IMG/VR virus record: IMGVR_UViG_3300033066_001722
Span: 25,817-89,816 of that record
Length of the DNA stretch: 64,000 bases
Strand: one strand, 5' to 3'
DNA from: a virus
Lineage: Duplodnaviria; Caudoviricetes
The notes beneath the pieces are model-generated. The model was given only the letters and a program-made list of their open reading frames with translations, was not told where the DNA came from and made no database searches. The position numbers were made by a program, and so were the translations under genes. Below, piece after piece: positions 1,768 through 57,134 of this stretch; the stretch's first letter is position 1, and every line of letters starts with the position of its first letter.

Positions 1768-3150
1768 TTATGAGATGCCGCCTGACTTCATATCTCGGAA
1801 TCCGGCAAATCGTGGGTGTGCGAGACTGCCGTTCCTGGTACGTTGTTGATAACGTACGCGAGCCCAGCGTCCAATGTAGGTAGGGTTCATCTTCCCTCGG
1901 GCTGCGACTTTTGGATCTATCTTCTGACCGCTCGAATTCCGCCATTGCTCGCCAGGAGGAAGCGTCCAGATCAGAGCCCAGTCCTCCTCTGTCATACCTC
2001 CGACGAGGACTCTCGTCTCGTTCTCCAGGACAACAACCAGGACAGGCTGTTTGTTCTTCCAGACGATGTCGACGATCTTGAACTCCTCTTCGATCTCGCC
2101 TTTGACCTTCAACCAACGTCCATCGTAACCGAGAGTATACGGAGCAGAGGGATCCTTCACAATGATCCCTTCGAGGCCCATGGCGATCTTGGCGCTGGCT
2201 CGCTTGAACGCCTCTTCGCGGTTCTTGACGATGGTGAAGTCTGCGAGGGAGACGTTCACCGGTACGCTTCTTGCAGGCTGCAAGAGACTGGCCCACTGCC
2301 CTAGTGGGCCATCGTCGAGGAACGGAATGTCTGGTCTGCCGAACAGATTGTTCAGCACTCGTCGACGCTGCCTCCAGCTCACCTGGAAGTCCTTCTGCCA
2401 GAAGCTGGTCGGGAAGATGTCGAAGACAAAAGCACGTGCAGAGGCGTCTGCCGTCCGTCTTGCAGCTACAGCAGCGTCTTCTCGGGTCGAAGCTCCGACG
2501 AGCTCCGTATCGAAAGTAACCTCCGCTCCCTGCACAAGCTCATACAAGTCACGAGCGAGCAGACCGCAGCCTCCTGTGATCTCTCCCGTAGCGGATATAT
2601 AGCGTCCGAGGACGTTGCCTGCACTCGAATACGCCTGACACTCTCCCTTTTCGATCTTGAAGAAAAGTCTCCAACCGTCGTACTTGGTCTCTTCGACCCA
2701 GTCCTCGAAGATCTGATCCTCCATCGCCTCACACTTCCTGATGCGGAAGCGTTGAGGGGCATCTCCTCCGAAGTACTTCTCCATAGACTTGTGGGAGACG
2801 CCAATCTCCAGATTTCGCCTCAGGAGACGTTCTAACCACACCGCCTGGCGCGCAGATCCGCGACGCATCTGGTTGTCAACGCGTGTGATCGTCGCACTGT
2901 TCCGATTCGTCCCGCGCAGCTCGTACGCAAGCTCGACGATCTCTCTGAAGTAGATCTCGTCTGGGACCTGCTCCTGCATCGCGAGGTCCTCGACCTGGAC
3001 GGTTGGGAGTGTACCGAAGGCAGTCCCACTCTCCCAAGCTAGACGGAGGTACTTGACCAGTACCTCTTGACCGAGGCCTGTGGCTAGCAGTGCGGATTTG
3101 GCCGTCGAACCTCGCAAGGCAGCGACCTGCTCAAGCAGCTTGATACTCAT
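1768..3150 (-). CDS. ATP-dependent DNA ligase
   Basis: Motif I ETKYDGWR, motif III FDTEL, IIIa FVFDI, IV EGIIVK, V WLKVK, VI HPRFAGFR. True start MSIKLL at 3150 (ATGA overlap). Confidence 0.93.
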   Translation of the reverse strand: MSIKLLEQVAALRGSTAKSALLATGLGQEVLVKYLRLAWESGTAFGTLPTVQVEDLAMQEQVPDEIYFREIVELAYELRGTNRNSATITRVDNQMRRGSARQAVWLERLLRRNLEIGVSHKSMEKYFGGDAPQRFRIRKCEAMEDQIFEDWVEETKYDGWRLFFKIEKGECQAYSSAGNVLGRYISATGEITGGCGLLARDLYELVQGAEVTFDTELVGASTREDAAVAARRTADASARAFVFDIFPTSFWQKDFQVSWRQRRRVLNNLFGRPDIPFLDDGPLGQWASLLQPARSVPVNVSLADFTIVKNREEAFKRASAKIAMGLEGIIVKDPSAPYTLGYDGRWLKVKGEIEEEFKIVDIVWKNKQPVLVVVLENETRVLVGGMTEEDWALIWTLPPGEQWRNSSGQKIDPKVAARGKMNPTYIGRWARVRYQQRTRNGSLAHPRFAGFRDMKSGGIS

Positions 3151-3365
3151 GAGTCCTCCAGTGGAGCGAAGGCCGTAATGAAGCTGTCGACACAGTCGAC
3201 GTCCTGATGTAGGAGGCCTAGACTCTCGTAGGTATAGAAGCCTCGTCGAGTGCGAAACCCGTTCGACTCGATAACGACCTCTTCGGATCTGAATGCGAGG
3301 ATGTACTCGAAGCGGAAGGTATCTGGATTGAATCGATAGACGCGATAGTTGTAGCGAGGCTTCAT
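3147..3365 (-). CDS. hypothetical protein (72 aa)
   Basis: Start MKPRY at 3365. ATGA overlaps at both ends. Confidence 0.65.
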   Translation of the reverse strand: MKPRYNYRVYRFNPDTFRFEYILAFRSEEVVIESNGFRTRRGFYTYESLGLLHQDVDCVDSFITAFAPLEDS

Positions 3366-4444
3366 TTCGAGTGGGCAGAAGACGCGTGCCGTCTGGATCT
3401 TTGCTCCTCGGAGGAGGAACTGACCGAGAGGCTTGTTCGGTTCGATCTCGATGCGACCTTTTGCTCCTGTGACCCACATGACTGCATGAACGCGTCAGCG
3501 TCGATCAGGTATACGGCGTCCTTTTCGACAGCGACTTCTTTCCCACTCTTCGTAGTCTCGACGACGGTGAGCTTCCCAATTCGGATGGCTCCCTCCCATG
3601 CCTTGTGGCTCTCATCCCGTCCATAACGGGCGAGCTCTCGCTGAAGCTCTGTCACCTTCGTCATCTGGATGAACCGTCTTTGCGTCTCCTCTTGAAGAGT
3701 GTCGAAGGTCACGACCTTGACACCTCGTAGTGCCAATCCACGCAGGGTTGCATGGATGCGATAGCTCGCAGTTCCTGGAGGACTAGGTGAGGCCAGGTAA
3801 CTGTCGTTCTTCGCCTCTGCCAGATAGACCTGGAGCTTCTCTGCAAGCATCCGCACGGTGTCCATGACGTAGTCGTACTTCATCCCCAGACCCCTGTGGA
3901 CGTCTGCTGGATTCTCATAGTCTCCGGACAGTAGAGCGTTGTAGATCATCGCCTGTGGCGTATCAAGTTCCGCGTAGATCCGCTCGATCACCTTCTGTAG
4001 GAGACGAACGTCTCCTCGCATCTCTGGCGTCGCTCGAACGTTGTCGTGTGCGTACTGCTCTGGATCGTCCGGATGCTCTCGGTCCGAGTCTCCTTCCTCT
4101 CCTGCCCGGCTCGCCCACTCCGACTGAAGGACGTTCCTTCGGGCTTTGCCTCGGCTCATCGAGTACTTGTCGTTGTACGCATTCAGCACAGCTGTGCGCA
4201 GCGCCTTGGTAAGCTTCGGGGTCTCGAGATCCTTGTAGCGACTTGAGGTCACGACCTCGTGGAGTTTGACCATTCCCAGCGATAGCAGCTCCGTGATGTG
4301 CATATCGACATGGAAGTCCCGGCTACGTCGACGTGCCATTGATATGACCTCCCCAACCATGATAGGAAGGTCGTTACGACCGTAGACGCTGTTCAACTGA
4401 ACAGAATCCTTACGGAGTTTTTCAATGATCTGTGATACGTTCAT
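3362..4444 (-). CDS. sigma70-like RNA polymerase sigma factor with C-terminal extension (putative)
   Basis: Region-2-like ELLSLGMVKLHEVV...LRTAVLNAYND and region-4-like HTH LDTPQAMIYNALLSG..PADVHRGLGMKYDYVMDTV. Start MNVSQ at 4444 (ATGA). Confidence 0.5.
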   Translation of the reverse strand: MNVSQIIEKLRKDSVQLNSVYGRNDLPIMVGEVISMARRRSRDFHVDMHITELLSLGMVKLHEVVTSSRYKDLETPKLTKALRTAVLNAYNDKYSMSRGKARRNVLQSEWASRAGEEGDSDREHPDDPEQYAHDNVRATPEMRGDVRLLQKVIERIYAELDTPQAMIYNALLSGDYENPADVHRGLGMKYDYVMDTVRMLAEKLQVYLAEAKNDSYLASPSPPGTASYRIHATLRGLALRGVKVVTFDTLQEETQRRFIQMTKVTELQRELARYGRDESHKAWEGAIRIGKLTVVETTKSGKEVAVEKDAVYLIDADAFMQSCGSQEQKVASRSNRTSLSVSSSSEEQRSRRHASSAHSK

Positions 4445-5322
4445 TTCACACTCCGGATTCCGAGGATTGTAGCGACTTGCTCTTGCAACTCTGCGAGGTT
4501 CGCAGACTGCGATAGCTTCGCACGATACCATTGACGGAAGATGGGCGGGATTTTGCTCTCGTACCTAGTCGGCAACGTCAATGTCGCGGATAGTGCCCGC
4601 TCCAGCGCCTCCCACCTCTCAGGGTCCGAGAGGCGCTTGATCTCCTCGGGACGCGACATCCCGAGAGTTCGTTGGTAGGCCATCTCGAGATGGCGGACAA
4701 CACCATCTTGGCTCAAGGGAGGGATCGACTTCTTAGTCGAGGCTGTTGCCTGCTTAAGGTATATAGGCGCTGGAGGCGGAGGCATCGGCTGGATCTCGAC
4801 GACACGCGTCCACACTGGAGCCTGCAGAGCTGGCTTGGCCCTCCCGCGAAGTTCAGAGGGGTCTGCGTAGCGGTCAGGGTCACCGCCATGCTTCAGTGGG
4901 CTGATGATGTGTAGCCAACTATACAGCAGCCAGCTCCCCAAGTCTGCTCGATCGCGCAGCGTCCAGATGAACTTTCCGAGGTCAAGCTCTCGCTGGGAGG
5001 CTCCAGGTCGGAAGCGACGGTGCTCGAAGTAGTACGCAGACTCTGGAATGGTCCGCAGTGTGAGCTGCTTGATATCCTCTCTGGCTTGCTCTGTCAGCAG
5101 AGCGTTCTTCGAAAGCTCTGCGTACTGATTCGCCCAGAGGATCGCTGCTGCTGCTCGGATGGTCCGCTCGCTTGGACGCTGGAATTGAATCTTCAGTAGA
5201 TCGGGTGTCTCTACAAGCTTCATTGCGAGAGATGTGCGAAGCTCTCTGATCAATGCTGGAGACAACTCCAGGTCGTAGGGTGGAATCGCAGGGCACTCCA
5301 AGAATGCCAATTGAACCTTCAT
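4441..5322 (-). CDS. hypothetical protein
   Basis: 293 aa ORF with AAGGAG RBS upstream, coupled to the next gene. Confidence 0.75.
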   Translation of the reverse strand: MKVQLAFLECPAIPPYDLELSPALIRELRTSLAMKLVETPDLLKIQFQRPSERTIRAAAAILWANQYAELSKNALLTEQAREDIKQLTLRTIPESAYYFEHRRFRPGASQRELDLGKFIWTLRDRADLGSWLLYSWLHIISPLKHGGDPDRYADPSELRGRAKPALQAPVWTRVVEIQPMPPPPAPIYLKQATASTKKSIPPLSQDGVVRHLEMAYQRTLGMSRPEEIKRLSDPERWEALERALSATLTLPTRYESKIPPIFRQWYRAKLSQSANLAELQEQVATILGIRSVK

Positions 5323-8186: not shown

Positions 8187-9566
8187 TTAGACGCTGACGA
8201 CGTTGCCACGTACTGTCTGTACGTTCAACCTAACGCCTGGCCTGAACGCTGCTGTCGTCTTCTTCAAAAGGCCGGATCCGTTGTCCTGGATCCACCGCCC
8301 CTTCGCGTTGTAGCGGATTGCCTCCGTCGACCAACCGGTCACGGTAGCTGTGATACCATCGCCGGAGATATAGGAGGCGTCTGGTGGTGTGGCTGTCACC
8401 CACTCGTTGGTGATTGAGATCGTGACCTGGAGGTCACGCGCGCAGGGAGGTATGCTGACGGTCTGGTCGTAGACCGGCGCACCTGAGTAGTCTCCCGGCT
8501 TGGTCAGCGCCAGCTGGAGATCTCCCTGGTAGTAGGGTGTGAATGTCGGTGTAGTCCCGGCGATACCTGTCGTGATCCTGCCCAACAGGATGTCATAAGG
8601 GGTTGAGGGGAACTCGCCTCCACTGGACCCGCCAGGAGTACCACGCTTGTCCGTCGGATAGGTGTAGGAGGGTACCCCTGACGTCGGGAGGGTACCTTTC
8701 TGGACGTAGATGCAGAGCGCACCCTTCGTGGTGAGCTGTGCGCGTAGGAAGTAGGTCGTCGACGTGTCAAGAGTCGAAGACTCCCAGACACCCGTAGGCG
8801 CACCCCAGGCAGACCTGAACAGTCGTCCGGCAACTCGAATGACATGATCGCCGGAGATACTCACGATCCCGCCTGTCCCAGGTGATGTCGCTGCTGTGAC
8901 ACTTGGATAGAGAGCAGTCTCACCCTCAACTCCGAGTCGGATCGCCCCGTACTCTAGAGGTGCGAGAGTCCTTGCATCTCCGACGCAGAGAGGATTGCTG
9001 TAGTAGTAGCTGATATCTGCTTGAGCGACCTGAGGCTGCCCTGCGATGAGTCGGACTGCTGCGAGGGCAACAACGCCCTCTGTGGACGCTGCGAGAGCAA
9101 GGTCTGCGTCTGGGGCAGCCTCTGTGCCAAGAGCTGCTGTCCCTCCTGCGTATGTCCGATACTCGACGGCGATGACCTGATCAAAAGGCTGCTCGCTGCC
9201 GTTGTCGTCCACCCTCGTCGTTCGATCAACGACGCACAACCGAGCAGCTAACACGACGACTCTTGCGTCTCCGGACTGGACTGGAAGGGTAGGTCCGACA
9301 TAGGACCCGTGCGTGGACTCTCCTACCGTCAACACGCCCGACTCAGTGTCAGACAGGTAACCGTTCGAGCAGAGTAGACCAGTCCCGACTTGGACCTTCA
9401 GCGGATCCGCGTGCGCGGTCACCGTTGGGACAGATGTCCAGCCGTTCTGACTGAACACGTGCTGTAGGAGGATCGCATCTCGTTGCAGCTCTCCTTGCAG
9501 GATCTCTGCGAAGTCGACATCACGCACCAGCTGCCCGTTGTAAGGTCGTCGTGTTAGCTTGATCAT
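8187..9566 (-). CDS. baseplate-attached tail fibre/receptor-binding protein (paralog of 10488..12461)
   Basis: Position after the baseplate genes, G/T/S-rich composition, and segments alignable by eye with 10488..12461. Start MIKLTRR at 9566. Confidence 0.6.
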   Translation of the reverse strand: MIKLTRRPYNGQLVRDVDFAEILQGELQRDAILLQHVFSQNGWTSVPTVTAHADPLKVQVGTGLLCSNGYLSDTESGVLTVGESTHGSYVGPTLPVQSGDARVVVLAARLCVVDRTTRVDDNGSEQPFDQVIAVEYRTYAGGTAALGTEAAPDADLALAASTEGVVALAAVRLIAGQPQVAQADISYYYSNPLCVGDARTLAPLEYGAIRLGVEGETALYPSVTAATSPGTGGIVSISGDHVIRVAGRLFRSAWGAPTGVWESSTLDTSTTYFLRAQLTTKGALCIYVQKGTLPTSGVPSYTYPTDKRGTPGGSSGGEFPSTPYDILLGRITTGIAGTTPTFTPYYQGDLQLALTKPGDYSGAPVYDQTVSIPPCARDLQVTISITNEWVTATPPDASYISGDGITATVTGWSTEAIRYNAKGRWIQDNGSGLLKKTTAAFRPGVRLNVQTVRGNVVSV

Positions 9567-25409: not shown

Positions 25410-25886
25410 CTAGACTGTGACACGACGGTAGCGATCACAAGAGATCTCGACCGTCTCGATTGCAGCTTCGGCATCCTGCATGCTGGAGCGTTCGCCGTGT
25501 GAGTCCTTCACGGGGAAGCAGCCCTCGCACTCCCACTTGTCGATGATCTGATCGCTGTCACCCTTGTCGATGATCGTCAGACCACGCTTGTAGCGTGCGG
25601 CTCCGATACTCTGCCCCGTCTCCGGATCGCGGACCTGACGCATCCAGTCCCAGAAGAAGGTATCGCTCGAGTTCGCAGGCATCACCTTCTTCAGCGTGAT
25701 GTTGCCGAACTTCCAAGCGCCTGCAGTCTTCTGCTTCGTCGCACTGCCTGGAGGCGCGTGCTCGACTGTCCCGAGCTCAGAGTCTGGGATCGAGACAGAC
25801 TGGACGAGCGCAACGGGTAGACCTTCGCACTCGACGAGGAAACGAAATGTCTTCCGTGGATCAACTTCTTGAGCTTCGATGGCCAT
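25410..25886 (-). CDS. tail tube protein (T4 gp19-like)
   Basis: FRFLVE, KFGNITLKK, FFWDW and W...GCFP motifs; directly after the sheath gene. Confidence 0.92.
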   Translation of the reverse strand: MAIEAQEVDPRKTFRFLVECEGLPVALVQSVSIPDSELGTVEHAPPGSATKQKTAGAWKFGNITLKKVMPANSSDTFFWDWMRQVRDPETGQSIGAARYKRGLTIIDKGDSDQIIDKWECEGCFPVKDSHGERSSMQDAEAAIETVEISCDRYRRVTV

Positions 25887-31779: not shown

Positions 31780-33270
31780 CTACGTCAGGGTGACGGTCGC
31801 GAAGGCCTTCGCGTTGATGCACTTCTTGCCGGCACGAGACAGCACGCCCTTGCTGTACTGGAAGTTGGCCGACGGATCCGGCATGGTCGGGGTCCAGGTC
31901 AGCAGCGAGTATGGCGCAAAGACCGCTGCCATGTACATGGGGTTGTCCGCCTTGTAGCCCAGCAGGATCTTGCTGGCGGGCATGAAGGGGTCCATGTAGA
32001 CCTGCGTGGTGCCGCTGTTGACGGTGCCGAACAGGATGCGCTTCTCCAGCGTCGCCGTGTTGCTCACGCCGATGCCACCGCGATCGACCGACGAATCCAG
32101 CTGGCGGAAGCCCGAGATCAGGCGCAGCCGTTCGGCGGCATCACTGCCGGCGATCAGCCAGTTGGCCCGTGCATTGCCGTTGGTCGCCTTCCAGATCATC
32201 TGATCGGCCTTGATGATCGCCTGGCCCAGGGTGGCCTCGTAGGCCAGCCGACTCGCGGTATCGATGTCACCGGCCAGATAGCCGGCGGTGCTCCAGTTGA
32301 CGTTGCCAGCGCCGTTCATCGCGGCTTCGACCAGCATCATCCGCACCAGCTGCCGGTCGATCTCGCGATCGAGCTGGTTGCTGGCTGCATCGACCATCTC
32401 CTGCTCCAGGTCGCCGTTGTGATAGGCACCGAAGTCCTGGCGAGACTGCTCGGTGAACAGGAAGCGCAGCGTCATGTCCGTCGCGGTCAGCGTCTCGCTG
32501 GTCATCTTCATGTCCAGCTCACGCGGCGTGTCGCCTTCGGCATAGGTCGCGTACATGACCTTGATCTTGGCATTCAGCGCCGGAGCGACACCGAAGATCA
32601 CACGGCCACGCCCGTTCACACCACCATTGTCGACGGTGAAGTCGGTCGTGTGGGTCTTCTCGACTCCGTTCACGAAGACGCGGACGCGGCTGCTCGAGAA
32701 GGCACCAGCAGTGGCAGTGGTCTTGACCGCGGTCGTCTCGACGACGAAGGTGGTCGTGACACCGTCACCGGTGAAGCTCTCGGGCGACTCACCCCAGCCC
32801 GAGTAGTTCGGGTCGACGGCCTGATCCAGGCGATCCGCAGCGGTCGTCGGATACTTGGTCGAGGCATAGCGGTGATCGATATAGAAGATCTTCGCCTCGG
32901 GTGTGGTCATCGGCCACACGGTGCACAGACTGCGGGCGTACAGCTGGATGTACAGTCGGCGGATCAAGGGCAAGGCCACCTTGACGAAGGGCTCGACCGC
33001 CGAGGTCGTGACGGCCTCGCGCAGCTCCTTCGGCGACATGCTCAGCGCCTTGCGCCCCAGGCCCAGCCCGGTGTGAGACGCCAGCTCATTGACGTGACGC
33101 TCCAGCAGCAGCTCCAGGCCGATGCGACATCCCATGCCGTAGGCTTCCTGGACGTCGACGAGCTTCAGGCTCTTGTCGGCACCGTAGCCGGTGTACATCG
33201 ACCACTTCGAGGCACGATCGGGATTGTGAACCAGCCACGGGATGCGCGGCTCTTCGGTATGCGTATACAT
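31780..33270 (-). CDS. major capsid protein (T4 gp23-like) with an inserted beta-sandwich domain
   Basis: LIRRLY, VWPMTTPEAKIFYID, EIDRQL, ANWLIAGS, VYMDPF and AVFAPY motifs. Confidence 0.93.
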   Translation of the reverse strand: MYTHTEEPRIPWLVHNPDRASKWSMYTGYGADKSLKLVDVQEAYGMGCRIGLELLLERHVNELASHTGLGLGRKALSMSPKELREAVTTSAVEPFVKVALPLIRRLYIQLYARSLCTVWPMTTPEAKIFYIDHRYASTKYPTTAADRLDQAVDPNYSGWGESPESFTGDGVTTTFVVETTAVKTTATAGAFSSSRVRVFVNGVEKTHTTDFTVDNGGVNGRGRVIFGVAPALNAKIKVMYATYAEGDTPRELDMKMTSETLTATDMTLRFLFTEQSRQDFGAYHNGDLEQEMVDAASNQLDREIDRQLVRMMLVEAAMNGAGNVNWSTAGYLAGDIDTASRLAYEATLGQAIIKADQMIWKATNGNARANWLIAGSDAAERLRLISGFRQLDSSVDRGGIGVSNTATLEKRILFGTVNSGTTQVYMDPFMPASKILLGYKADNPMYMAAVFAPYSLLTWTPTMPDPSANFQYSKGVLSRAGKKCINAKAFATVTLT

Positions 33271-33310: not shown

Positions 33311-34654
33311 TTAGCGCCGAGCTCCCGACAGCCGTGCTTCGTGCTCGTCGAAATCCTTGGCTCGCAGTGCGTCGCCATCTGCCTGGCTGTGACCACGCTG
33401 GGTGGAGACGCCTGTCGCCTCCAGCAGGGCCTTCTGACGCTTGACAGCCTTCAGGGCCTCCTCGACGGAGTTCGGGAACTCCACATCGCCATAGGCCTCG
33501 GTCAGCTGCTTGCCGACGCGGACGCCGCCCTTCGCAGGGTTGGCACCCAGCACAGCGACCTGCAGCATCTCCGCCAGCGGATGACCCTGCGTCGCTTCCA
33601 TGACTGCGGCCTTGACCTGGCTGCGCACGCGCTCGGAGCGGACCTCCTCCAGGAGGGCGCTGTTGGCGCGGTTCTGCGACATCTGCTCATTCAGCTGGCG
33701 CTTCGTCGACTCCAGCTCGTCGCGGATCAACGCGACCTGGGTGTTCGTCGCCTCGTTCAGGTTCGCTGACTTGTCGTTGGCCGTCCGCAAGGCTTCGGTC
33801 AGATTCTCGATGCGATTCAGCAGCGGAGCCTCGGCAGCCTCGCGAATCGCCTCCTCACGTGAGGCCACTTCGACTTCGGCCAGCGACGTCAGGACTCGCC
33901 GCGACAGCTGCAGCGCCTCCGTGATCAGCCCCTTGTAGGTATCCGGCACGAGCTTCCGTAGCTCGAGTACGTTCTTCGTGTTGAGAGCGCCGAAGACTTC
34001 AGGCGCGTTCTCCTTCAGCCATTCGAGCTTGATGTCGCCTTCCGGCAACGTGATGGTCTTGGGCATCTTCCTTGACTCCTGCAATGAGGTCATCTTGGCT
34101 GTGCTGACAGAGGGATTCAGGACGAGATCCCATCCTCGCAGCCGTAGATCCTTCTGGACAATGGAACCACGCTGACCGTTGATCTCTCCCTCTTGCACTG
34201 TCCCCTGCGCTCGACTGCTGACGCCGAGAGGTACACCTAGGCGGGCGAGCGCCAGGACATCTCGTCCTCGTGCTGTGTCCGGGATGAGGAAGACGCCATT
34301 GGCGATCTTCTTCTGTGCCTCGTCAAGGTCGTAGTCCTTCAGGACCACTGCGACCTCGCCTGCGCGATATCCCTGGTCGTCCGCTGGGTGCCCATCGAAT
34401 CCTGGGACTGGCTCATTCGCCAGGACCTTGCCCTTGAAGTCCGCTGCGACTTCACGCAGCGTGTCCCACGGGTAGATCCGCTTGTTCTGATTCAGCCGAT
34501 CGCCCTCTTGGATCGTCGCGAACCGCAGGATCCCGATAGAGCCAGGAGGTAGCTTGGGCTTCGTCCCCTCCTGGAGCTCCTGCTCTTCGAGGCGATATTC
34601 CTTGGTGATCAGTACTTCGTTGAGATCTTGTGCAGCCACCCTGTGGACTATCAA
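33311..34654 (-). CDS. prohead protease (T4 gp21-like) fused to a scaffold-like coiled-coil region
   Basis: NQNKRIYP, DGHP (His), LGVSSRAQG (Ser), WDLVLNPS; helical C-terminal half. Confidence 0.9.
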   Translation of the reverse strand: MIVHRVAAQDLNEVLITKEYRLEEQELQEGTKPKLPPGSIGILRFATIQEGDRLNQNKRIYPWDTLREVAADFKGKVLANEPVPGFDGHPADDQGYRAGEVAVVLKDYDLDEAQKKIANGVFLIPDTARGRDVLALARLGVPLGVSSRAQGTVQEGEINGQRGSIVQKDLRLRGWDLVLNPSVSTAKMTSLQESRKMPKTITLPEGDIKLEWLKENAPEVFGALNTKNVLELRKLVPDTYKGLITEALQLSRRVLTSLAEVEVASREEAIREAAEAPLLNRIENLTEALRTANDKSANLNEATNTQVALIRDELESTKRQLNEQMSQNRANSALLEEVRSERVRSQVKAAVMEATQGHPLAEMLQVAVLGANPAKGGVRVGKQLTEAYGDVEFPNSVEEALKAVKRQKALLEATGVSTQRGHSQADGDALRAKDFDEHEARLSGARR

Positions 34655-37104: not shown

Positions 37105-38814
37105 CTAGACGTCTCCAATTCGGGTGTCGAGAGGACGATTAAACTGAATGAGCTCCTGGATACACTCCACGAGTTCATTGACTTGTCGGTTGAGCGATTC
37201 AATCCGAGTACGGTCATTGACCGGGATCGGAGGGGCTCCACGCGGGGTCGGACGCTTGACGATCGGCTGACCGTCCTCCGGCTTTGCCGCGTCCGCGGCC
37301 TGGCCACCTGTCGCTTGCATCGCCGCCATGGCCTCTGCCTGCGATTCTGCGGCCTCTTTCTTAAGGAGGGCTACCTGGGCCTTGGCCTCCTTTTCGGAGA
37401 AGCCTAGGTGTCGAATCAGGAGCTGTTCTCGTGTAAGCAGCTTGGCCTCCTGCCCCAGAGCAACGATCGTATAGCGCAACTGGTCGACCTTCATCGCTGT
37501 CAGATCGTCGATCTGGGAGAGGGATGGAAAGGTCGTTCGAACGACCACGTCGTCCACGACCGACTTCGAGTATCCTTGGCAACGCAGCTCCACACGACAG
37601 CAGCGTACGATACCGTGCGCGTAATCCTTACGCACACGTCGTATAGCGCGCAGGAAGTTCATGATGGCGATCGTAGGAGCGGTGTCTCCGGACAGCGTAG
37701 CGTTGCCATTGCTGGAGAACCAACCTCGATACATCCCGAGTCCCATGAAGAGGCGATCATAGATCATGTCCATGTCGCCAATCTTCGAGATGTTGGGGTC
37801 CCCCTGCATGCGCTCGACGTCGTTCTTGCTCTTGTCACTGACAGGGATGTAGATGTCCTCGTCTGAGCGAAGAGGATTCGTCCGCATCTCCATCTTGCCG
37901 GACGCATCTGTATAGCGCGTCCGCTTCGTCTCTCGCCTGAACTTCATCAGGTAGATGAGACGATCGACAGGGTTCATGTCTGCGACATCAACCTTCCACT
38001 TGTAGCGTGGTTGACTGTTGGCGAGCCGATTGATGACCATACCATCGAAGAGAAGCTCAAGGATCTTCGCAAGTCTGTCGACTGAGCGGAGGATCGAGGT
38101 ACCATAGACCTGTCCAGCACTGAGCTGGAGCATGAAGTGGCAGACCTGCCAACGATCGAACTCAGCGGCGCTCTCCTGATCCTTCGAGATAGCAGGCGGG
38201 ATTCCATACTGCTTATAGCCGAGGACGTCTCCGGAGTTGTCGAACTGCTTCTCCATAGAAGCGGGAGGTCGGTAGCCGATCTTCGACAAGCCCATAGGCG
38301 TGACGATGAGTTCCCAGAAGCTGTCGCCGAACTTGCACATCTCTCGGACAGTCTGCCAGGCATAGTCGGGTAGGCCCGTGCGTCGGAGCATTGCCTCTAG
38401 GATCTCTTGCTGCTCGGGATCTTCAACCTTGACCTTGAAGACCTCGTCCTTGTCGACCATCGAACCGGCGACTGCGTAGTCCGCGTACATGTTCAAGGCT
38501 GTCGTGATCTCAGGTAGGTTCCGATCCATCTCCTCGTAGCGCGCGTACCGATCGTAGCGGATCGTACTCTGGTTGAGCCAGTCCAGATAGCTGTCAGCGT
38601 AGAGACCGCCATACCAGAGTAGAGGATTCGAGGTACCCTCTTCGGTGGTCTTGGACTGTCTGCGCTTGAATGGATCGTCGTCGTCGCCGATACCTCGACG
38701 CAGTTCTGCAGCTGCAGAGCGTACCTTCAGGCCTGTAGGCTCCTCGAGCTTCTCCTCTGCGAGGTCCCCTCGAAGAGCACGATAGGCTCCATACAGACGA
38801 TCGAACACGGTCAC
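37105..38814 (-). CDS. portal protein (T4 gp20-like)
   Basis: RYEEMD..PEITTALNMYAD, GTSIL, DGMVINRL..SQPRYKWKVDV and SDEDIYIP. Confidence 0.93.
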   Translation of the reverse strand: MTVFDRLYGAYRALRGDLAEEKLEEPTGLKVRSAAAELRRGIGDDDDPFKRRQSKTTEEGTSNPLLWYGGLYADSYLDWLNQSTIRYDRYARYEEMDRNLPEITTALNMYADYAVAGSMVDKDEVFKVKVEDPEQQEILEAMLRRTGLPDYAWQTVREMCKFGDSFWELIVTPMGLSKIGYRPPASMEKQFDNSGDVLGYKQYGIPPAISKDQESAAEFDRWQVCHFMLQLSAGQVYGTSILRSVDRLAKILELLFDGMVINRLANSQPRYKWKVDVADMNPVDRLIYLMKFRRETKRTRYTDASGKMEMRTNPLRSDEDIYIPVSDKSKNDVERMQGDPNISKIGDMDMIYDRLFMGLGMYRGWFSSNGNATLSGDTAPTIAIMNFLRAIRRVRKDYAHGIVRCCRVELRCQGYSKSVVDDVVVRTTFPSLSQIDDLTAMKVDQLRYTIVALGQEAKLLTREQLLIRHLGFSEKEAKAQVALLKKEAAESQAEAMAAMQATGGQAADAAKPEDGQPIVKRPTPRGAPPIPVNDRTRIESLNRQVNELVECIQELIQFNRPLDTRIGDV

Positions 38815-51696: not shown

Positions 51697-52458
51697 CTAC
51701 TCCTCGTCCCCTTCAAAGTCCATCGAGTCTATGTCGATCGAACCAACGATGTCTGCGACGATCTGCGCGATGTACTCTTCTGGAGTCATCTGACCAGATG
51801 CCTCGTGCTGCTCGTCGAAGGAGCTCGGGAGGACGCCCTTACGCCCCAGAGCCTTCTTCAGGCCCGTCTTCGTCGCCTTCGTGACGGCCTTCTTCATCAG
51901 TAGCTTCGACGTCGCGCCCTTGAACAGAGTTGACTTGCCTAGAACGCCGATGGCACTGGAGGCCACCTGTCCCTTCAAGGACAGGAGTAGTGCGAGGGTG
52001 GCGATATCCTTGAGCTGATCAATCGCGACCGTCTTCTCTTCGTCAGTCACTGGCTGTCGACGTGCCATCTTCAGCATCGTTGACGCCATGACCTTCGTCT
52101 GCGTCGCCTCGCTCTTCAGAGCACTCTTGACGTTGTTGACGAGTTCAGCTCGACCTTCCTTGGTAGTCAAGGTCTTCCAGAACTTGCCCAGCGCCTGTAC
52201 CTTCTCCTGCGCAGCTCCCTTCAGCTTGTCCACGATGCCAGTCTTCGGCGTTTCGACTCGGCCTCCGTGTTCGTCTGCGAAGTCCGGCTCGTGTCCGGAG
52301 ATACCGTTCAGTTCGTCTGGGTGTTTGCCGACGAAGTCTGGTGGTCCCTTGATGATATGGCCATCGTCGCCAATCATCACGTGGACCCCGCGGAGGGTGA
52401 GCCATTCACCCTCGTCGGCTTCAAGGAGTTGTGTGTGGAATCGAAGGAGCTGACTCAT
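51697..52458 (-). CDS. tagged internal virion protein with a hydrophobic C-terminal segment
   Basis: QLLEADE-GEWLTLRGVHVMIGDDGHIIKGPP; later IATLALLLSLKGQVASSAIGVLG. Confidence 0.75.
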   Translation of the reverse strand: MSQLLRFHTQLLEADEGEWLTLRGVHVMIGDDGHIIKGPPDFVGKHPDELNGISGHEPDFADEHGGRVETPKTGIVDKLKGAAQEKVQALGKFWKTLTTKEGRAELVNNVKSALKSEATQTKVMASTMLKMARRQPVTDEEKTVAIDQLKDIATLALLLSLKGQVASSAIGVLGKSTLFKGATSKLLMKKAVTKATKTGLKKALGRKGVLPSSFDEQHEASGQMTPEEYIAQIVADIVGSIDIDSMDFEGDEE

Positions 52459-52476: not shown

Positions 52477-52966
52477 CTAGCTGTCGCCACTGTAAGGATT
52501 CTTCGGATCTTTGGCAGGGTAGTGGGTATAACCGCTACCTCCCGAGGATACACCTCCGGTCGACTTCACATGATGATCCGCAAGGGCTTCGATCGCATAC
52601 TGCCTCTTCGATTCACCATATCGACCTCCAATTGGCTTACCCTCTGCGTCGTACATACGATATCTAGTCTGTGTCGCGTAACCTGAAGCGATCCGGCTAC
52701 CTGCAGACCGGACCGCGACGCGATCCTCATACTTCTCGACATGGCCTACGACTTTGCCATCCACTGTGACTGGCTGCTTGTTCGAGTGGCTTCGACTCGG
52801 CGTCCTTGAACACCTTGTCGCGAAGACCCTTCGGTCCTCCTGTGACCTCGCCTGTATCGTCGTCGATCAGGATGCGAGCGCCGTTGACCGTGATCCAGCC
52901 CTCAGTAAGGAGGGTATCTAGACGTCCGAGGATCCCGTCCGCCAGTTTGCGTTCTAAGCTACTCAT
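52477..52966 (-). CDS. tagged protein split over two frames (52727..52966 and 52477..52764): frameshifted or two overlapping ORFs
   Basis: Tag ORF starts MSSLERK at 52966 with a GAGG RBS and loses similarity to its paralog after KPLE. The +1 frame continues ..KQPVTVDGKVVGHVEKY and has no good RBS. Confidence 0.55.
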
Positions 52967-53105
52967 CTTCGTCCTCGAGTTCTGCGTCCCGCAAGAGGGC
53001 AGCGGGGAGTGGGAAGTGCTCGACATCCAAGCTTCCATCCTCGTCGCGATCAGGGTCGTTCTCAGGTTCGGTTGGCTTACTCGAGCCATTCTTTGCGGAT
53101 GCCAT
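52959..53105 (-). CDS. small acidic protein (48 aa, not in the ORF track)
   Basis: Manual translation MASAKNGSSKPTEPENDPDRDEDGSLDVEHFPLPAALLRDAELEDEDE*. Fills the gap exactly; its 3' end overlaps the next ATG. Confidence 0.55.
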   Translation of the reverse strand: MASAKNGSSKPTEPENDPDRDEDGSLDVEHFPLPAALLRDAELEDEDE

Positions 53106-54111
53106 GTTTCTTGCCCCAAGCCTGGATGACCTGTGGAGCTATGTAGCTCCGTCGGGCCATCGCAGGTGTGTTGTTGAGTTGTTTGGAGACGTCTGTCGAG
53201 ACAGACTTCAAGATGCTGATGATATGACGAGCGTCTGCCTTCTTGTCACCTGTCAAGGTGGGAGGCTTCTCGTCTAGAAGACGCTCTGCTGTCGAGGTCG
53301 CGACGATCGTCCGAAGATCCTTCGTCTTGACTCCCTTCGGGAGCACAGCAGCAACAGAGTCGCTCGTAACGCCAGGGAACACGCGCTCGTTCGGCTGCTT
53401 CCCCTCGGTCAAGGACTTCAAAGCCCGGACCAGCTTCGGATCCGTGACGGTAGCCTTGTTCTCTTTACCGGCCTTGCCGACGTAGCTGATGCTGGCCTTG
53501 CCAGGGGAGAACGATAGGTGTCGCGCCTCCATCGTCGTCGCACCGTAGTGACCTGTCGAGGATAGGCTCGCAGCACCTCCAGGACGTAGTCCTGTGAGCG
53601 CGATGAGCATTGCCGCTGCATGCGCAGGGCTCTCCTCCACCTTGGAACGGAGTCGACCTAACTGCGCCTCGACCTTCGGTCGACCTGCGAGAACACGTTC
53701 CCACTTCTTGGCGGCGTTCTGCTTGTCGAACTCCGCAGAGTATCCGCGCTGCTCTCGTCCCTTGTCATCTCGCCACTTGATCAGGGCACCCTGGTGCACT
53801 CGATCAGAGTCGAGGTTCGCCATGACCTCAACGTTCTTGATGTGCGCAGCAGGTAGCTTGCTGACTCCGAGATCCTTCAGACGCTGGACGACCTCTGGGT
53901 GGAGTTGGGATCCTGCGCCTCCTCCACGTTTGGGTACGTCTCTCGTCTCGGCCTTTGTATAGCCACCGGTAGAGCCTGACCCGAAACGTCCGTCGCTATC
54001 ACGAGGATGGTCTTCCTCGCTCCAGACGTTCTCGACCATGTCGAGTGTGACATGGCGGGAGTTAAGCTGTGTCTGACCTGTGGTCAGGATCTCTTGAAGT
54101 GATCGTAGCAT
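53077..54111 (-). CDS. type IB DNA topoisomerase with an N-terminal WxxxxHPRxxxGRF motif
   Basis: TGLRPG (R), YVGKAGK (K), KDLRT (R), NNTPAMARRSYI (N, catalytic Y). Confidence 0.88.
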   Translation of the reverse strand: MLRSLQEILTTGQTQLNSRHVTLDMVENVWSEEDHPRDSDGRFGSGSTGGYTKAETRDVPKRGGGAGSQLHPEVVQRLKDLGVSKLPAAHIKNVEVMANLDSDRVHQGALIKWRDDKGREQRGYSAEFDKQNAAKKWERVLAGRPKVEAQLGRLRSKVEESPAHAAAMLIALTGLRPGGAASLSSTGHYGATTMEARHLSFSPGKASISYVGKAGKENKATVTDPKLVRALKSLTEGKQPNERVFPGVTSDSVAAVLPKGVKTKDLRTIVATSTAERLLDEKPPTLTGDKKADARHIISILKSVSTDVSKQLNNTPAMARRSYIAPQVIQAWGKKHGIRKEWLE

Positions 54112-54114
54112 TTG

Positions 54115-54789
54115 TCAACGCGTCCACTGTATCGGGCTTGGCATGACCTTGTTAGCTGTGCTAAAGGGTGCAGAGCCTACGAACTGTGAGCGCGGATTGA
54201 TCGGGCTTGGATGGTCGGTCGTATGGTACGTATAGCGATCGAAGCTGCCCACACTGTGGTTGTTCAGACTCACGCCGAACGTATCTTTGATCGCGTCACG
54301 CGCATCCTTGCCCCACAGCATGAAGTGGACAGGGTGGGCTGAACCAGCGCAGATGCCTCGCAGGAGATGTGGGAACAGGCGCTGCCACAAGCTCCGATGC
54401 GAACGCGCAAGATTTGCGCGGACTGTCAAGGTCGCGTTCAGCAGCACGACACCCTGTTCGACCCATAGGTCGAGAGTCGGTTCGACTGTACCTCCGCAAT
54501 CGCGCCTCAACTCGACAAGAACGCGTTCAAGGCTCGGTTGCTTACCCTGGCTTGGCGGGCATGCGAAAGCGCGTCCTATTGCAGCCCCTGGCGTTTGGTA
54601 TGGATCCTGGCCAAGGATGACCGCACGGACGTCGCGCCATTGCACCTCTTCCAAGGCTCGCCAGACCAAATCTGGAGGCGGTAGCGTCTGCGGATCAGCG
54701 AGTGCGGACGTGATAGGGTCGAGCATTGAGGCGAAGCCGACTGGATCGGCTGCCTCTAGTGAGGAAAGATAGTCGGTGAGATCGCTCAT
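54115..54789 (-). CDS. ung: uracil-DNA glycosylase, family 1
   Basis: VILGQDPY, QGVVLLNATLTV and HPSP. Confidence 0.92.
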   Translation of the reverse strand: MSDLTDYLSSLEAADPVGFASMLDPITSALADPQTLPPPDLVWRALEEVQWRDVRAVILGQDPYQTPGAAIGRAFACPPSQGKQPSLERVLVELRRDCGGTVEPTLDLWVEQGVVLLNATLTVRANLARSHRSLWQRLFPHLLRGICAGSAHPVHFMLWGKDARDAIKDTFGVSLNNHSVGSFDRYTYHTTDHPSPINPRSQFVGSAPFSTANKVMPSPIQWTR

Positions 54790-55505
54790 CGCTGCTCCAC
54801 GACGGTGACGACACCTGCGTTGACGTCGAAGACGGCAGGAGGGTGCTCGATCGCGTAGCGCGGACCACAGCAGGCGACATTCGCATGGATTGTCTGTCCT
54901 ATGCGGACATTCTGTCCTCCGCAGGCGTGGACGTGGCCGAAGAGGTGTAGCGCAGGAGGCTGCTTCTCGATGAAGTCCTTCAGGGTCGAACTACCCCATG
55001 AGATGCCACGTTCGAGGTCCAAGATCCCCGCTGGAGGTACGTGCGTGACGAGGATGTCGACGGGATAACCGAGTTCCAGCCAAGCCCAGCGAGGCTCCAG
55101 CTCTGCCTCTGAGCCTGCAGAGAAGGCACGGAACCGGCTGTTGCGTACCCAGCTCCAAGTTGCTCCTGCAATGCGCAGGCGTCCGTCTGGGTCGTTGTGG
55201 ACGTAGTGCCCTTGCCAGCCGAGACCGCTCAACAACGTGATACCACAGGAGGCAGTCGGTAGGTCGATAGGGTCGTGATACCGACTGTAGTCCTGTAGAG
55301 CACGCTCCAGCGTTGAGTCGTGGTTCCCAGGGACCAGCAGCTTGACTCGATGAGGAAGCTCAGACATCCAGTCGAGGAATCCGTGCATCTCGTCGAGGAC
55401 GTCGAGGTTAGAGAAGTCCCCGCAGTGGATGAGGATGTCTCCTTCGGGGACCGTCAGCTCAGCGTGACGATTGTGCGTATCTGACATTGCGACGATGCGT
55501 GTCAC
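54786..55505 (-). CDS. metallophosphoesterase
   Basis: SDTH, GDFS, PGNHD, LVTHVPP and FGHVH motifs. GTG start at 55505 (GTGA overlap). Confidence 0.92.
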   Translation of the reverse strand: MTRIVAMSDTHNRHAELTVPEGDILIHCGDFSNLDVLDEMHGFLDWMSELPHRVKLLVPGNHDSTLERALQDYSRYHDPIDLPTASCGITLLSGLGWQGHYVHNDPDGRLRIAGATWSWVRNSRFRAFSAGSEAELEPRWAWLELGYPVDILVTHVPPAGILDLERGISWGSSTLKDFIEKQPPALHLFGHVHACGGQNVRIGQTIHANVACCGPRYAIEHPPAVFDVNAGVVTVVEQR

Positions 55506-56677
55506 AGTCCGACCTCCGTTGCAGTCACACGAACCTCTACGTTGTCGATACGCTGAGACTTTGGCTGACGTAAGAGGAACAGGTACCAGACCATCCCAAC
55601 AAGAGATATGAAGATCGACAGTCGTACAGCGCCGACGAGATCGTGTCGATAGTAGGTCGTGATGACCCCAGCAGCCTTGCCTCCTAAGGCCATCGTAGAC
55701 AGCCAAGCTGCCATCCCTAGAGCGGAGTAGCGTTCTGGCACGAGAGCTGTGATCGTGTCCATGCCGATAGGCTGGATCAGGACCTCTGCGAGCGAGGCAA
55801 GAGCGTACCAGGCTATCAACCAGCCTAGCGAACTACCGCCTAGCAGGCAGCAGAAGGCGAGGACCATCAGTGCGAGAGCGAAGATCGCACGAAGGCGCAG
55901 GTTCGACCAGGTACCGACGGGAGTCAGCAGTAGCAGGAAGGCGAAGACTGGGTTAAAGGTCGAGATCGCCTCCGGCAGTTCGACCTTGCAGACCTCAGCA
56001 GCCCAATAGACCAAGGTCGTCGTCTGCTGCTTCCAGCCGACGAAGAAGAGCGTAGATCCCACCAGGAGCACCAGAATGCGACCCCATTGAGGGCGAAGTT
56101 CGACCGGTGCCCCTGTCAAGGCTGACGCAACGACGGCCTCCTCTGATCGATTCTGGGCTACAGGGCGTAGACGTTTCCAACTGACGAGCAAGATCACCGC
56201 AGCCAGTGCGACCGCGAATGTACAAGACGCGTAGACCGCTGGCCAGCCCCAATGAGCTCGCAGCGTGCTACCAACGAGAGTCGAGGGCATCGAACCTACC
56301 TGAATCGCTCCATAGTAGATCGCGAAGGCACGCGTTCGCTCCGGACCTAGCTTGAAGATCGAGCCCAACATCGCAGTGAAGCAGGGCTTGAAGAGACCAC
56401 AGGCGACGGACCATAGGATGAGGGCAAGCGTCGCATTGTGCGACAATGCCGCGACAGCGTAGCCCAGAACGAAGAGGAGCAGACCGCAAAGCGAGACTGC
56501 GCGCAGCGAGAGGCGCTGTGTCAACAGCCCTCCTACGAAGGCGATGAGGTAGGAGCCAAGCAGGAGATTGCCGGTCACGCCAGCATCCTGCCACAGGGTT
56601 AGCCCTCCAAGCATCTCATACCAGGCGAAACGCTCAAGCATGATCACAAGAAGCACGGGCAGAATGGACATGAGCAT
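55502..56677 (-). CDS. POT/PTR-family proton-dependent oligopeptide transporter
   Basis: LERFAWYEM (ExxERFxYY-like) and GLFKPCFTAMLG (PTR2 signature-like); about 12 hydrophobic segments. Confidence 0.82.
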   Translation of the reverse strand: MLMSILPVLLVIMLERFAWYEMLGGLTLWQDAGVTGNLLLGSYLIAFVGGLLTQRLSLRAVSLCGLLLFVLGYAVAALSHNATLALILWSVACGLFKPCFTAMLGSIFKLGPERTRAFAIYYGAIQVGSMPSTLVGSTLRAHWGWPAVYASCTFAVALAAVILLVSWKRLRPVAQNRSEEAVVASALTGAPVELRPQWGRILVLLVGSTLFFVGWKQQTTTLVYWAAEVCKVELPEAISTFNPVFAFLLLLTPVGTWSNLRLRAIFALALMVLAFCCLLGGSSLGWLIAWYALASLAEVLIQPIGMDTITALVPERYSALGMAAWLSTMALGGKAAGVITTYYRHDLVGAVRLSIFISLVGMVWYLFLLRQPKSQRIDNVEVRVTATEVGL

Positions 56678-56687
56678 GTGAACTCTC

Positions 56688-57134
56688 CTATTCGCGTCGA
56701 CCTCTGGAAGGTCGACTTCCGATGTCATCAGGAGCGTAACCGTAGCTCCTAACGTACTGTTGTCCGAGTGTCGGAGGTCGCTTCAGTGCCTTGAGCGGAA
56801 CGATCGTTCCGTTCGATCGTCGACTGGCGCGGACCATACAGCCTTCGACAGCGCATTTGTACTGAGCTTGGCCTAGCTCAGAGGCTGGGATCCAGCTGTG
56901 CTCGTGGTCGTTGCGGTTTGAGATCCTGTAGAGGTTGTACTCGTTCGGATCAGCTGCAGCGACTGAACTGCGTCGGACGTCGAGGAGCCCTGCCTCGCGC
57001 AATTCACGTAGTCGTGTGGCGATGACAGTCAAGGGAGGGCGTCGCCGACCTTTGAAGGCTCGGTGGAGGTCCTGAGGACTTGCCTCACCAACGGCCTTAA
57101 CCATATCAATCAATAGCTGTAGCGCTGGATCCAT
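56688..57134 (-). CDS. winged-helix DNA-binding protein with possible Zn-binding C-terminus
   Basis: ASPQDLHRAF...VIATRLRELREAGLL; HEHSW...YKC....C. Confidence 0.55.
   Translation of the reverse strand: MDPALQLLIDMVKAVGEASPQDLHRAFKGRRRPPLTVIATRLRELREAGLLDVRRSSVAAADPNEYNLYRISNRNDHEHSWIPASELGQAQYKCAVEGCMVRASRRSNGTIVPLKALKRPPTLGQQYVRSYGYAPDDIGSRPSRGRRE

Follow-up and report, generated by a model that had tools for sequence, protein, structure and literature searches.

A gene within a 64,000-nucleotide (nt) stretch of viral DNA raises the question of whether a tailed phage can carry a type IB topoisomerase (TopIB) in its head and deliver it together with its genome. The whole stretch, positions 25,817 to 89,816 of the IMG/VR virus record IMGVR_UViG_3300033066_001722, is called the window here and is part of a single 89.8-kb contig. 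The gene product joins a leader and a short motif, which we term the HPR header, to the enzyme, and the original prediction, made from the letters of the window, had seen in it a packaged topoisomerase bearing a second, interchangeable tag beside the GW[VI]T tag of other genes of this phage. What happens in the first minutes of infection is decided by the proteins that a phage injects with its DNA; to our knowledge, few of these are known beyond T4, P1, N4 and the giant phages. We assign a probability of roughly 0.55 to the reading that the protein is a stand-alone copy of a widespread cassette, HPR header plus intact TopIB, carried in the particle and released with the DNA. Head packaging is well supported by comparison with other phages and, for this phage, is what we infer from sequence; carriage in the virion is reasonable to propose because homologous modules are fused to portal and MuF proteins and because relatives lie in head modules. 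The protein would then be a head-cargo or polyvalent effector with a poxvirus-like enzyme as its passenger.

The topoisomerase and its N-terminal extension

The enzyme matches PF01028 over residues 153-321 (58.7 bits against a cut-off of 23.7, E 6.9e-16), and R176, K213, R267, N314 and Y323 are invariant across 32 homologs, which bears out the earlier claim of a complete R, K, R, N, Y catalytic set. By sequence profile, the closest solved relative is the TopIB of Deinococcus radiodurans (PDB 2f4q, E 1.6e-45), followed by variola TopIB, and the pentad aligns with R137, K174, R239 and the N...Y pair of 2f4q. These are reportedly the catalytic residues of the D. radiodurans enzyme (Krogh and Shuman 2002). 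The AlphaFold model has a mean predicted local distance difference test score (pLDDT) of 89.9, with values above 93 for residues 51-344 and of 44-61 for residues 1-50. It shows the two-domain clamp fold, an N-terminal beta domain plus a catalytic domain, and Foldseek aligns it over 304 columns with full-length variola TopIB (2h7f; E 8.7e-14, template modelling (TM) score 0.66/0.71). Given the pentad, the 2f4q match, the confident model from residue 51 onwards and the variola alignment, the enzyme is judged complete and its first 50 residues are modelled as a floppy add-on. The protein is thus predicted to be a catalytically intact type IB topoisomerase, which would relax DNA without ATP by way of a 3'-phosphotyrosyl intermediate.

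The N-terminus, rightly described before as non-catalytic, reads ...TLDMVE-NVWSEEDHPRDSDGRFGSGS, with the motif spanning W30 to F43. An [LIVM]-x-E site occurs twice in the leader ahead of it, as LQE (residues 5-7) and, just before the header, as MVE (residues 25-27); the leader is kept in a 92%-identical homolog that has IVE at the MVE position. From the header to the C-terminus there are 310 amino acids (aa), namely one enzyme-sized module directly behind the header.

The HPR header and the domains it precedes

The header is neither rare nor confined to this protein. The DNA pattern DHPRDxxG[KR]F occurred in at least 118 stretches of a viral contig collection, compared with 23 for a codon-permuted control, an enrichment of at least five-fold. 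All 86 matches examined (86/86) are in frame within long open reading frames (ORFs); Phe or Trp stands five residues ahead of the His in every one of them and Glu three residues ahead in nearly all, neither of which was required by the pattern. We built a 42-column header profile (A5) and searched it against 1.84 billion proteins, obtaining 3,053 representative proteins (clusters) at E<=1e-3, among which 319 reach 1e-10 or better because they contain several header copies each. The top matches are giant proteins of 1,200-3,700 aa with 3-9 copies, and the spacing of successive copies (median 256 residues, interquartile range 190-373) is about one enzyme domain. The consensus from 443 instances is A-[ED]-[FW]-[DN]-E-x-x-HPR-D-x-D-G-[KR]-F-x-x-GGGG. 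The header of the window fits every conserved column of this consensus and of A5; it is kept in the 92% homolog and decayed to H-D-R..GRF in the nearest relatives (63-65% identity).

Other searches with the header returned less. None of the solved structures searched with the header profile contains it, the best E being 9.7 (9rku); the only solved chain with anything header-like is 9rku chain Af, a 'putative tail biosynthetic protein' with P-R-D-A-S-G-R-F-A-Y-S-G-G at residues 84-103, which is not significant. A word-index search with TopIB residues 18-60 returned only the protein itself and the 92% homolog, because too few exact words are held in common. Searching by tblastn with a 27-residue peptide was insensitive (E 1-9); its matches included real instances in a Burkholderia phage portal, Salmonella phage 7-11 and an Amycolatopsis plasmid.

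To see what the header joins, 74 distinct header-bearing viral ORFs were split at the motif into 50 upstream and 67 downstream segments. Portals make up 26/50 of the upstream segments (24 Phage_portal_3, 1 lambda type and 1 Mu type), with MuF in 3/50 and NUDIX in 5/50. Downstream, ADP-ribosyltransferases (ARTs) account for 10 plus 3 of the 67 segments and TopIB for 7 by Pfam or 8 by its own profile; zeta toxin, NUDIX, LPD3, LPD13, PBECR1-3, RelA/SpoT, metallopeptidases and nucleases are also found. Judged by these domain assignments, the domains behind the header are those of the 'polyvalent protein' repertoire. Polyvalent proteins have been argued to be delivered with DNA (Iyer, Burroughs, Anand, de Souza and Aravind 2017; PMC5512222), and the text of that paper mentions neither the TopIB module nor the HPR header.

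The same architecture exists in cultured phages. In the 760-aa portal of Burkholderia phage vB_E436 (locus L001, PQ789831.1), the portal body is followed by an acidic linker, the header F-KEDD-HPRDADGKF-GSGGGG (starting near residue 545) and a domain of about 190 residues; the portal gene lies at 2375-4654. A portal with acidic linker, HPR header and an extra C-terminal domain is also seen in phiE131, phiE058, vB_E159 and Xanthomonas phages PhiXhv-5 and -7. Such phages are ready experimental models for whether and where cargo of this kind is cut. In Salmonella phage 7-11 (L002, HM997019.1), the header W-SDED-HPRQGNGSF is internal, at about residue 137 of a phiEco32 gp84-like protein (3605-5308), whose gene sits in an amidoligase / glutamine amidotransferase / ATP-grasp cluster and not in a head module.

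TopIB is a recurrent passenger of these proteins. We searched for relatives with the TopIB part alone and then tallied domains over the best 150 of the 3,053 header proteins. Fusions of Portal_Mu, HPR header and TopIB were found at L005 and L008, and at L009 with a degenerate header, and a fusion with Phage_portal_3 at L025/L026. TopIB forms the C-terminus of these portal fusions, with the header exactly at the junction. Since TopIB joined to a portal is in the capsid by construction, these fusions are the strongest argument for the TopIB family as head cargo, and they point to phages whose particles contain a topoisomerase. Among the best 150 header-profile proteins, TopIB occurs in 14, usually with the header directly ahead; it is portal-anchored in P0056 and P0170 and MuF-anchored in P0180, and in further examples it is combined with NUDIX, InPase and ART-PolyVal, the last being carried by P0065. 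The original prediction had considered a packaged enzyme unusual for a phage TopIB; the pairing of header and TopIB is not unusual, TopIB being among the commonest domains behind the header (8/67 and 14/150).

The header in front of TopIB can also be a different one. In L024, TopIB is preceded by two GW-like tags, and in L007 it ends a 1,747-aa SNF2-helicase protein. The SNF2-containing giant proteins of L006 and L007 have the header F-I-G-P-R-G-G-K-W-A-D-P...W (PRGG) ahead of TopIB. We placed these variants in context with a quick maximum-likelihood tree of 79 TopIB domains, with the header columns left out. Viral TopIBs separate from chromosomal bacterial ones, and the window TopIB falls into a clade of 24 stand-alone genes (Shimodaira-Hasegawa-like approximate likelihood ratio test, SH-aLRT, 99). 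The HPR header is scattered near the base of this clade, in six rows and, in decayed form, in the 63-65% relatives; eight members are headerless, and a header of the form K-G-G-[TS]-[FY]-x-[VI]-T-x-x-G-x-K-x-Y (KGG) marks one nested stand-alone subclade. Its fuller form is L-x-x-G-x-K-G-G-[TS]-[FY]-x-[VI]-T-x-x-G-x-K-x-Y (P0009-P0020, L003:4499-5662), and neither the KGG nor the PRGG header has a Pfam match in the proteins found. A neighbouring 7-row clade holds the Portal_Mu-fused TopIBs, with an HPR header detectable by regular expression in 3/4. At least nine changes of the HPR state are required to fit the tree, which indicates that headers were repeatedly lost or exchanged on a conserved enzyme. 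The idea of a second interchangeable tag thus stands in part: HPR, GW-like, KGG and PRGG headers do swap on TopIB, but a role as address label is doubtful. As far as the sequences go, what the data support is that headers are interchangeable, which need not make them interchangeable address labels. Co-occurrence of HPR and GW tags, which the original prediction proposed to test across phages, turned out to be rare (1/80 loci, 2/150 proteins).

Two stand-alone members of the window clade, L003 and L004, have enough flanking DNA, and both sit in head modules. In L003, TopIB lies directly ahead of a MuF-like gene and a capsid protein. The order in L004 is portal, a 865-aa unknown, TopIB, two ORFs and a DarB-like helicase. 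This 1,469-aa helicase (L004:13001-17410) has DarB-like antirestriction matches and lies about 2 kb downstream of TopIB; the portal-TopIB-helicase stretch has the appearance of a cargo block akin to the Dar system of P1.

Proposed carriage in the head and the possible role of the header

On the reading that we prefer, TopIB would be made late and loaded into the T4-type prohead, where its 27-residue leader might be trimmed at an [LIM]-x-E site by the gp21-type protease of this phage, an enzyme expected to process leaders ending in L/I-x-E. The capsid-carried enzyme would be released into the cell along with the DNA and would nick and reseal DNA without ATP, relaxing supercoils. It would act either on the genome as this enters, which would ease early transcription as happens in poxvirus cores, or on the host chromosome, as part of host takeover. 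Packaging, cleavage, timing and target DNA are all putative for this phage, and a role in early transcription or circularisation is speculation by analogy with poxviruses. Dissipation of host supercoils as a takeover step is conceivable given the company of ARTs, zeta toxins and nucleases.

Several points weigh against this proposal. The header itself served to select about half of the TopIB rows that entered the tree and the domain tallies. The TopIB gene lies 14 kb from the head module, directly after uracil-DNA glycosylase (UDG) and phosphoesterase genes, in a DNA-metabolism neighbourhood. Its header is the sole HPR motif in the 89.8-kb genome; the six further candidates there bear the GW tag, which is seldom seen together with HPR. 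No T4-type late promoter was found, and a generic scan for promoters and terminators gave nothing informative on timing. The profile built from the six GW tags gives no match to the TopIB ORF up to E 100, and the resemblance of the leader to ART/GNAT leaders is weak (p about 0.02). Lastly, the header is not a capsid-specific signal, since a small membrane protein encoded on a plasmid with conjugation genes begins with it too (see below), and in this phage it could be an inherited relic.

One alternative is that the protein is an ordinary intracellular enzyme of replication or transcription that is never packaged, with the header a relic of polyvalent origin that has no role here. We consider this unlikely. 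The TopIB gene starts only 3 nt past the UDG stop, with a metallophosphoesterase gene also preceding it; for some jumbo phages, TopIB has been counted among the replication-type enzymes (PMC7824862); and the decay of the motif in the nearest relatives and the eight headerless clade members point the same way as the isolated occurrence of the header in a GW-tag phage. Against it, the header fits the consensus at every conserved position and is kept in the 92% homolog. Stand-alone members of the clade lie in head modules, two GW-tagged genes immediately follow the TopIB gene, and TopIB is among the most frequent cargo domains. Carriage in the particle is the reading that we favour.

What the header itself contributes is a separate matter. 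On an Amycolatopsis plasmid (L179, NZ_CP091379.1), a 189-aa protein encoded at 8992-9561 starts with M-L-A-W-NEAD-HPRGADGRF and is predicted to run on into a membrane helix. Among the genes of this plasmid are those for ParA, kilB, SSB, TraM-recognition and relaxase-domain proteins; in the 18 kb viewed, none is annotated as a phage structural gene. The plasmid is the one example confirmed for the occurrence of the header outside phages. A packaging tag would be redundant in portal fusions, where the header stands at the junction all the same, and the header is also present on a conjugative-type plasmid. Its role as a packaging tag is therefore doubtful, and these two settings speak against reading it simply as a 'capsid address'. 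Its function might be that of an address label, of a site for processing or a hinge, or of a handle by which proteins travel with the DNA.

This leads to a second alternative, that the protein is packaged but addressed by its own leader (residues 1-27, M-L-R-S-L-Q-E-I-L..., ending MVE), which resembles a capsid targeting sequence (CTS), while the HPR header has a different job shared with plasmids, as a protease or hinge site between modules or as a handle for travel through a narrow channel. We regard it as improbable to about the same degree as the intracellular enzyme; in this T4-type phage the leader may be the actual address. Besides the portal junctions and the plasmid with its ParA, TraM-recognition and relaxase genes, it draws on the fact that most other HPR-headed TopIBs lack a long leader, whereas the protein of this T4-type phage has one, and that leaders of 7-10 residues suffice for loading in T4 (PMC9026906). 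The first 12 residues of the leader also resemble the ART/GNAT leaders (M-I-K-D-L-Q-S-L-L-L-E-G), the TopIB N-terminus scoring best of 94 N-termini. This similarity is marginal, however (35 vs 34 for the next best, shuffle p 0.017); chance alone often yields an [LIVM]-x-E site, a Met at P3 is non-canonical for gp21, and the job ascribed to the header is hypothetical. A by-eye impression that the TopIB N-terminus is a decayed GW tag was rejected: because the profile misses it and the pairwise scores are marginal, no GW-tag homology is claimed. The 'xVE' leader of the original prediction therefore survives in part, as a cleavage leader that is plausible but not significant: the LQE and MVE sites exist and the 92% homolog has IVE, but the GW profile misses the leader, such sites are common by chance, and the likeness to ART/GNAT leaders is slight.

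A broader proposal goes with the preferred reading of a particle-borne cassette, and we advance it tentatively, with a little more confidence than either alternative above. The HPR header might be a general, undescribed module code on thousands of enzymes sent into cells with DNA by tailed phages and some conjugative plasmids, with TopIB among the commonest, refitted in this phage with a local CTS-like leader. If so, many phages would deliver a DNA-relaxing enzyme as they enter the cell, a counterpart of the poxvirus core topoisomerase that would serve to reset DNA topology, either in the incoming genome or in the host chromosome; if the refitting is real, address and header would be separable parts. 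Should the stand-alone form of the cassette be carried as the portal-fused ones are, control of DNA topology at entry would be a new class of injected function. With its roughly 20 residues, the header offers a compact signature for finding candidate cargo in metagenomic phages, and it could possibly be used to load foreign proteins into capsids.

The view that the motif is low-complexity sequence arisen by chance, or an ordinary part of bacterial TopIB N-termini, for which only its shortness and the tblastn E of 1-9 for the 27-residue peptide alone would speak, is refuted by the enrichment over the permuted control with its conserved but unrequired flanking residues, by the 3,053 clusters, and by the absence of the motif from seven chromosomal bacterial TopIBs (Sinomonas, a sphingomonad and a bdellovibrio among their sources), two bacterial-type TopIBs with a PF21338 N-domain and the D. 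radiodurans enzyme. The bacterial TopIBs compared begin within about 10-40 residues of the fold, and the refuting condition named in the original prediction, that the motif belongs to bacterial TopIB N-termini, does not hold.

Known systems and the genomic setting

Several known systems share features with the cassette. The TopIB of vaccinia virus is encapsidated and works chiefly in early transcription (Shaffer and Traktman 1987; Da Fonseca and Moss 2003; both cited in PMC12188299), the function proposed here for the phage enzyme. The window TopIB shares with the vaccinia, variola and D. radiodurans (2f4q) enzymes the two-domain fold and the R-K-R-N-Y pentad, with Asn as in the bacterial enzymes. 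It differs from them in sequence (about 20-25% identity) and in belonging to a phage-only clade, and the 50-residue leader plus HPR header is found in none of them. The polyvalent proteins of Iyer et al. 2017, which belong to phages and conjugative elements and have solo-domain versions, are comparable in that homologous TopIB modules occur in portal- or MuF-anchored multi-enzyme proteins with ART-PolyVal, NUDIX, InPase, LPD and PBECR domains; the window TopIB is instead a solo version, fused to nothing.

T4 loads Alt and its internal proteins into the prohead core by means of N-terminal leaders 7-10 residues long, which gp21 cuts off at L/I-x-E (PMC9026906). The present phage resembles the T4 CTS system (IPI-III, Alt) in its T4-type portal, capsid protein and protease and in a short leader whose residues 5-7 are LQE; seven residues are lost from T4 Alt, and the Alt-like ART of this phage also carries a leader. 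In contrast to T4, where the likeness of the TopIB leader to a CTS is one of layout, the site before the header is MVE, which is non-canonical, and T4 leaders have no HPR or GW module behind them. The GW[VI]T tag is likewise a short N-terminal module behind an [L/M]-x-E leader on unrelated enzymes, and the TopIB of L024 bears a GW-like tag; yet the GW profile misses the TopIB N-terminus, and HPR and GW mostly occur in different phages. Jumbo phages phiRSL1, Lu11 and PaBG encode a phage-specific topoisomerase I, described as a replication/topology enzyme (PMC7824862); it is a TopIB-type enzyme like that of the window, but no header or link to the head is reported. A tblastn search of the window TopIB against 50,697 GenBank phage records at E<=1e-8 matched one uncultured 485-kb phage only, and phiRSL1, Lu11 and PaBG are absent from the matches.

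Our literature search found no paper describing the HPR header (HPRD, HPRx motif) and none on a virion or portal-fused phage TopIB. Capsid-carried topoisomerase is known for poxviruses and was not found described for phages.

The genome belongs to an uncultured tailed phage, and almost all of its genes lie on the minus strand. Identified genes comprise the T4-type portal (gp20), capsid protein (gp23) and prohead protease (gp21) of the head machinery, contractile-tail sheath and baseplate genes, a ligase and helicases (Table 1).

Table 1. Positions in the window of the TopIB gene, its parts, its neighbours and the T4-type head genes
Feature	Coordinates	Strand	Remarks
TopIB gene	53077..54111	-	344 aa + stop
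Leader, residues 1-27 (MLRSLQE...DMVE)	54031..54111	-	helix at residues 2-11 weakly predicted
HPR header, residues 30-50	53962..54024	-	W-S-E-E-D-H-P-R-D-S-D-G-R-F, then Gly/Ser run
TopIB N-terminal (DNA-clamp) domain and approach	53656..53961	-	residues 51-152, high-confidence model
TopIB catalytic domain	53080..53655	-	residues 153-344, R176 K213 R267 N314 Y323
UDG family gene, directly upstream of TopIB	54115..54789	-	
GW[VI]T-tagged gene, next downstream of TopIB	52727..52966	-	79 aa, tag + short tail
Second GW-tagged gene	51697..52458	-	253 aa, no family match
T4 gp21-type prohead protease	33311..34654	-	Peptidase_S77 weak (4.9e-4); phrog_207 head maturation protease 5.4e-22
T4 gp20-type portal protein	37105..38814	-	Portal_T4 3.2e-31
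T4 gp23-type major capsid protein	31780..33270	-	Gp23 3.4e-34

The neighbours of the TopIB gene are the UDG gene and two GW-tagged genes, and the tags of the latter (starting at 52966 and 52458) were confirmed by profile, in agreement with the earlier description of TopIB as heading a run with two tagged genes. Together with four others in the window they make six GW[VI]T tags, which score E 1e-21 to 1e-23 against the profile built from them; the tagged proteins include the Alt-like ART and a 548-aa protein encoded just after the portal. The first of the two neighbouring ORFs (52727-52966) shares 38 nt with ORF 52477-52764 (95 aa), which lies in another frame and is open further upstream, and a frameshift, either real or an assembly error, may join the GW tag of the former to a body in the latter. 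Two genes upstream of the UDG-TopIB pair, a 408-aa transporter of the POT/MFS type is encoded at 55502-56728 on the minus strand (PF00854 4.5e-23, PF07690 1.1e-21), an unusual cargo for a lytic-looking phage.

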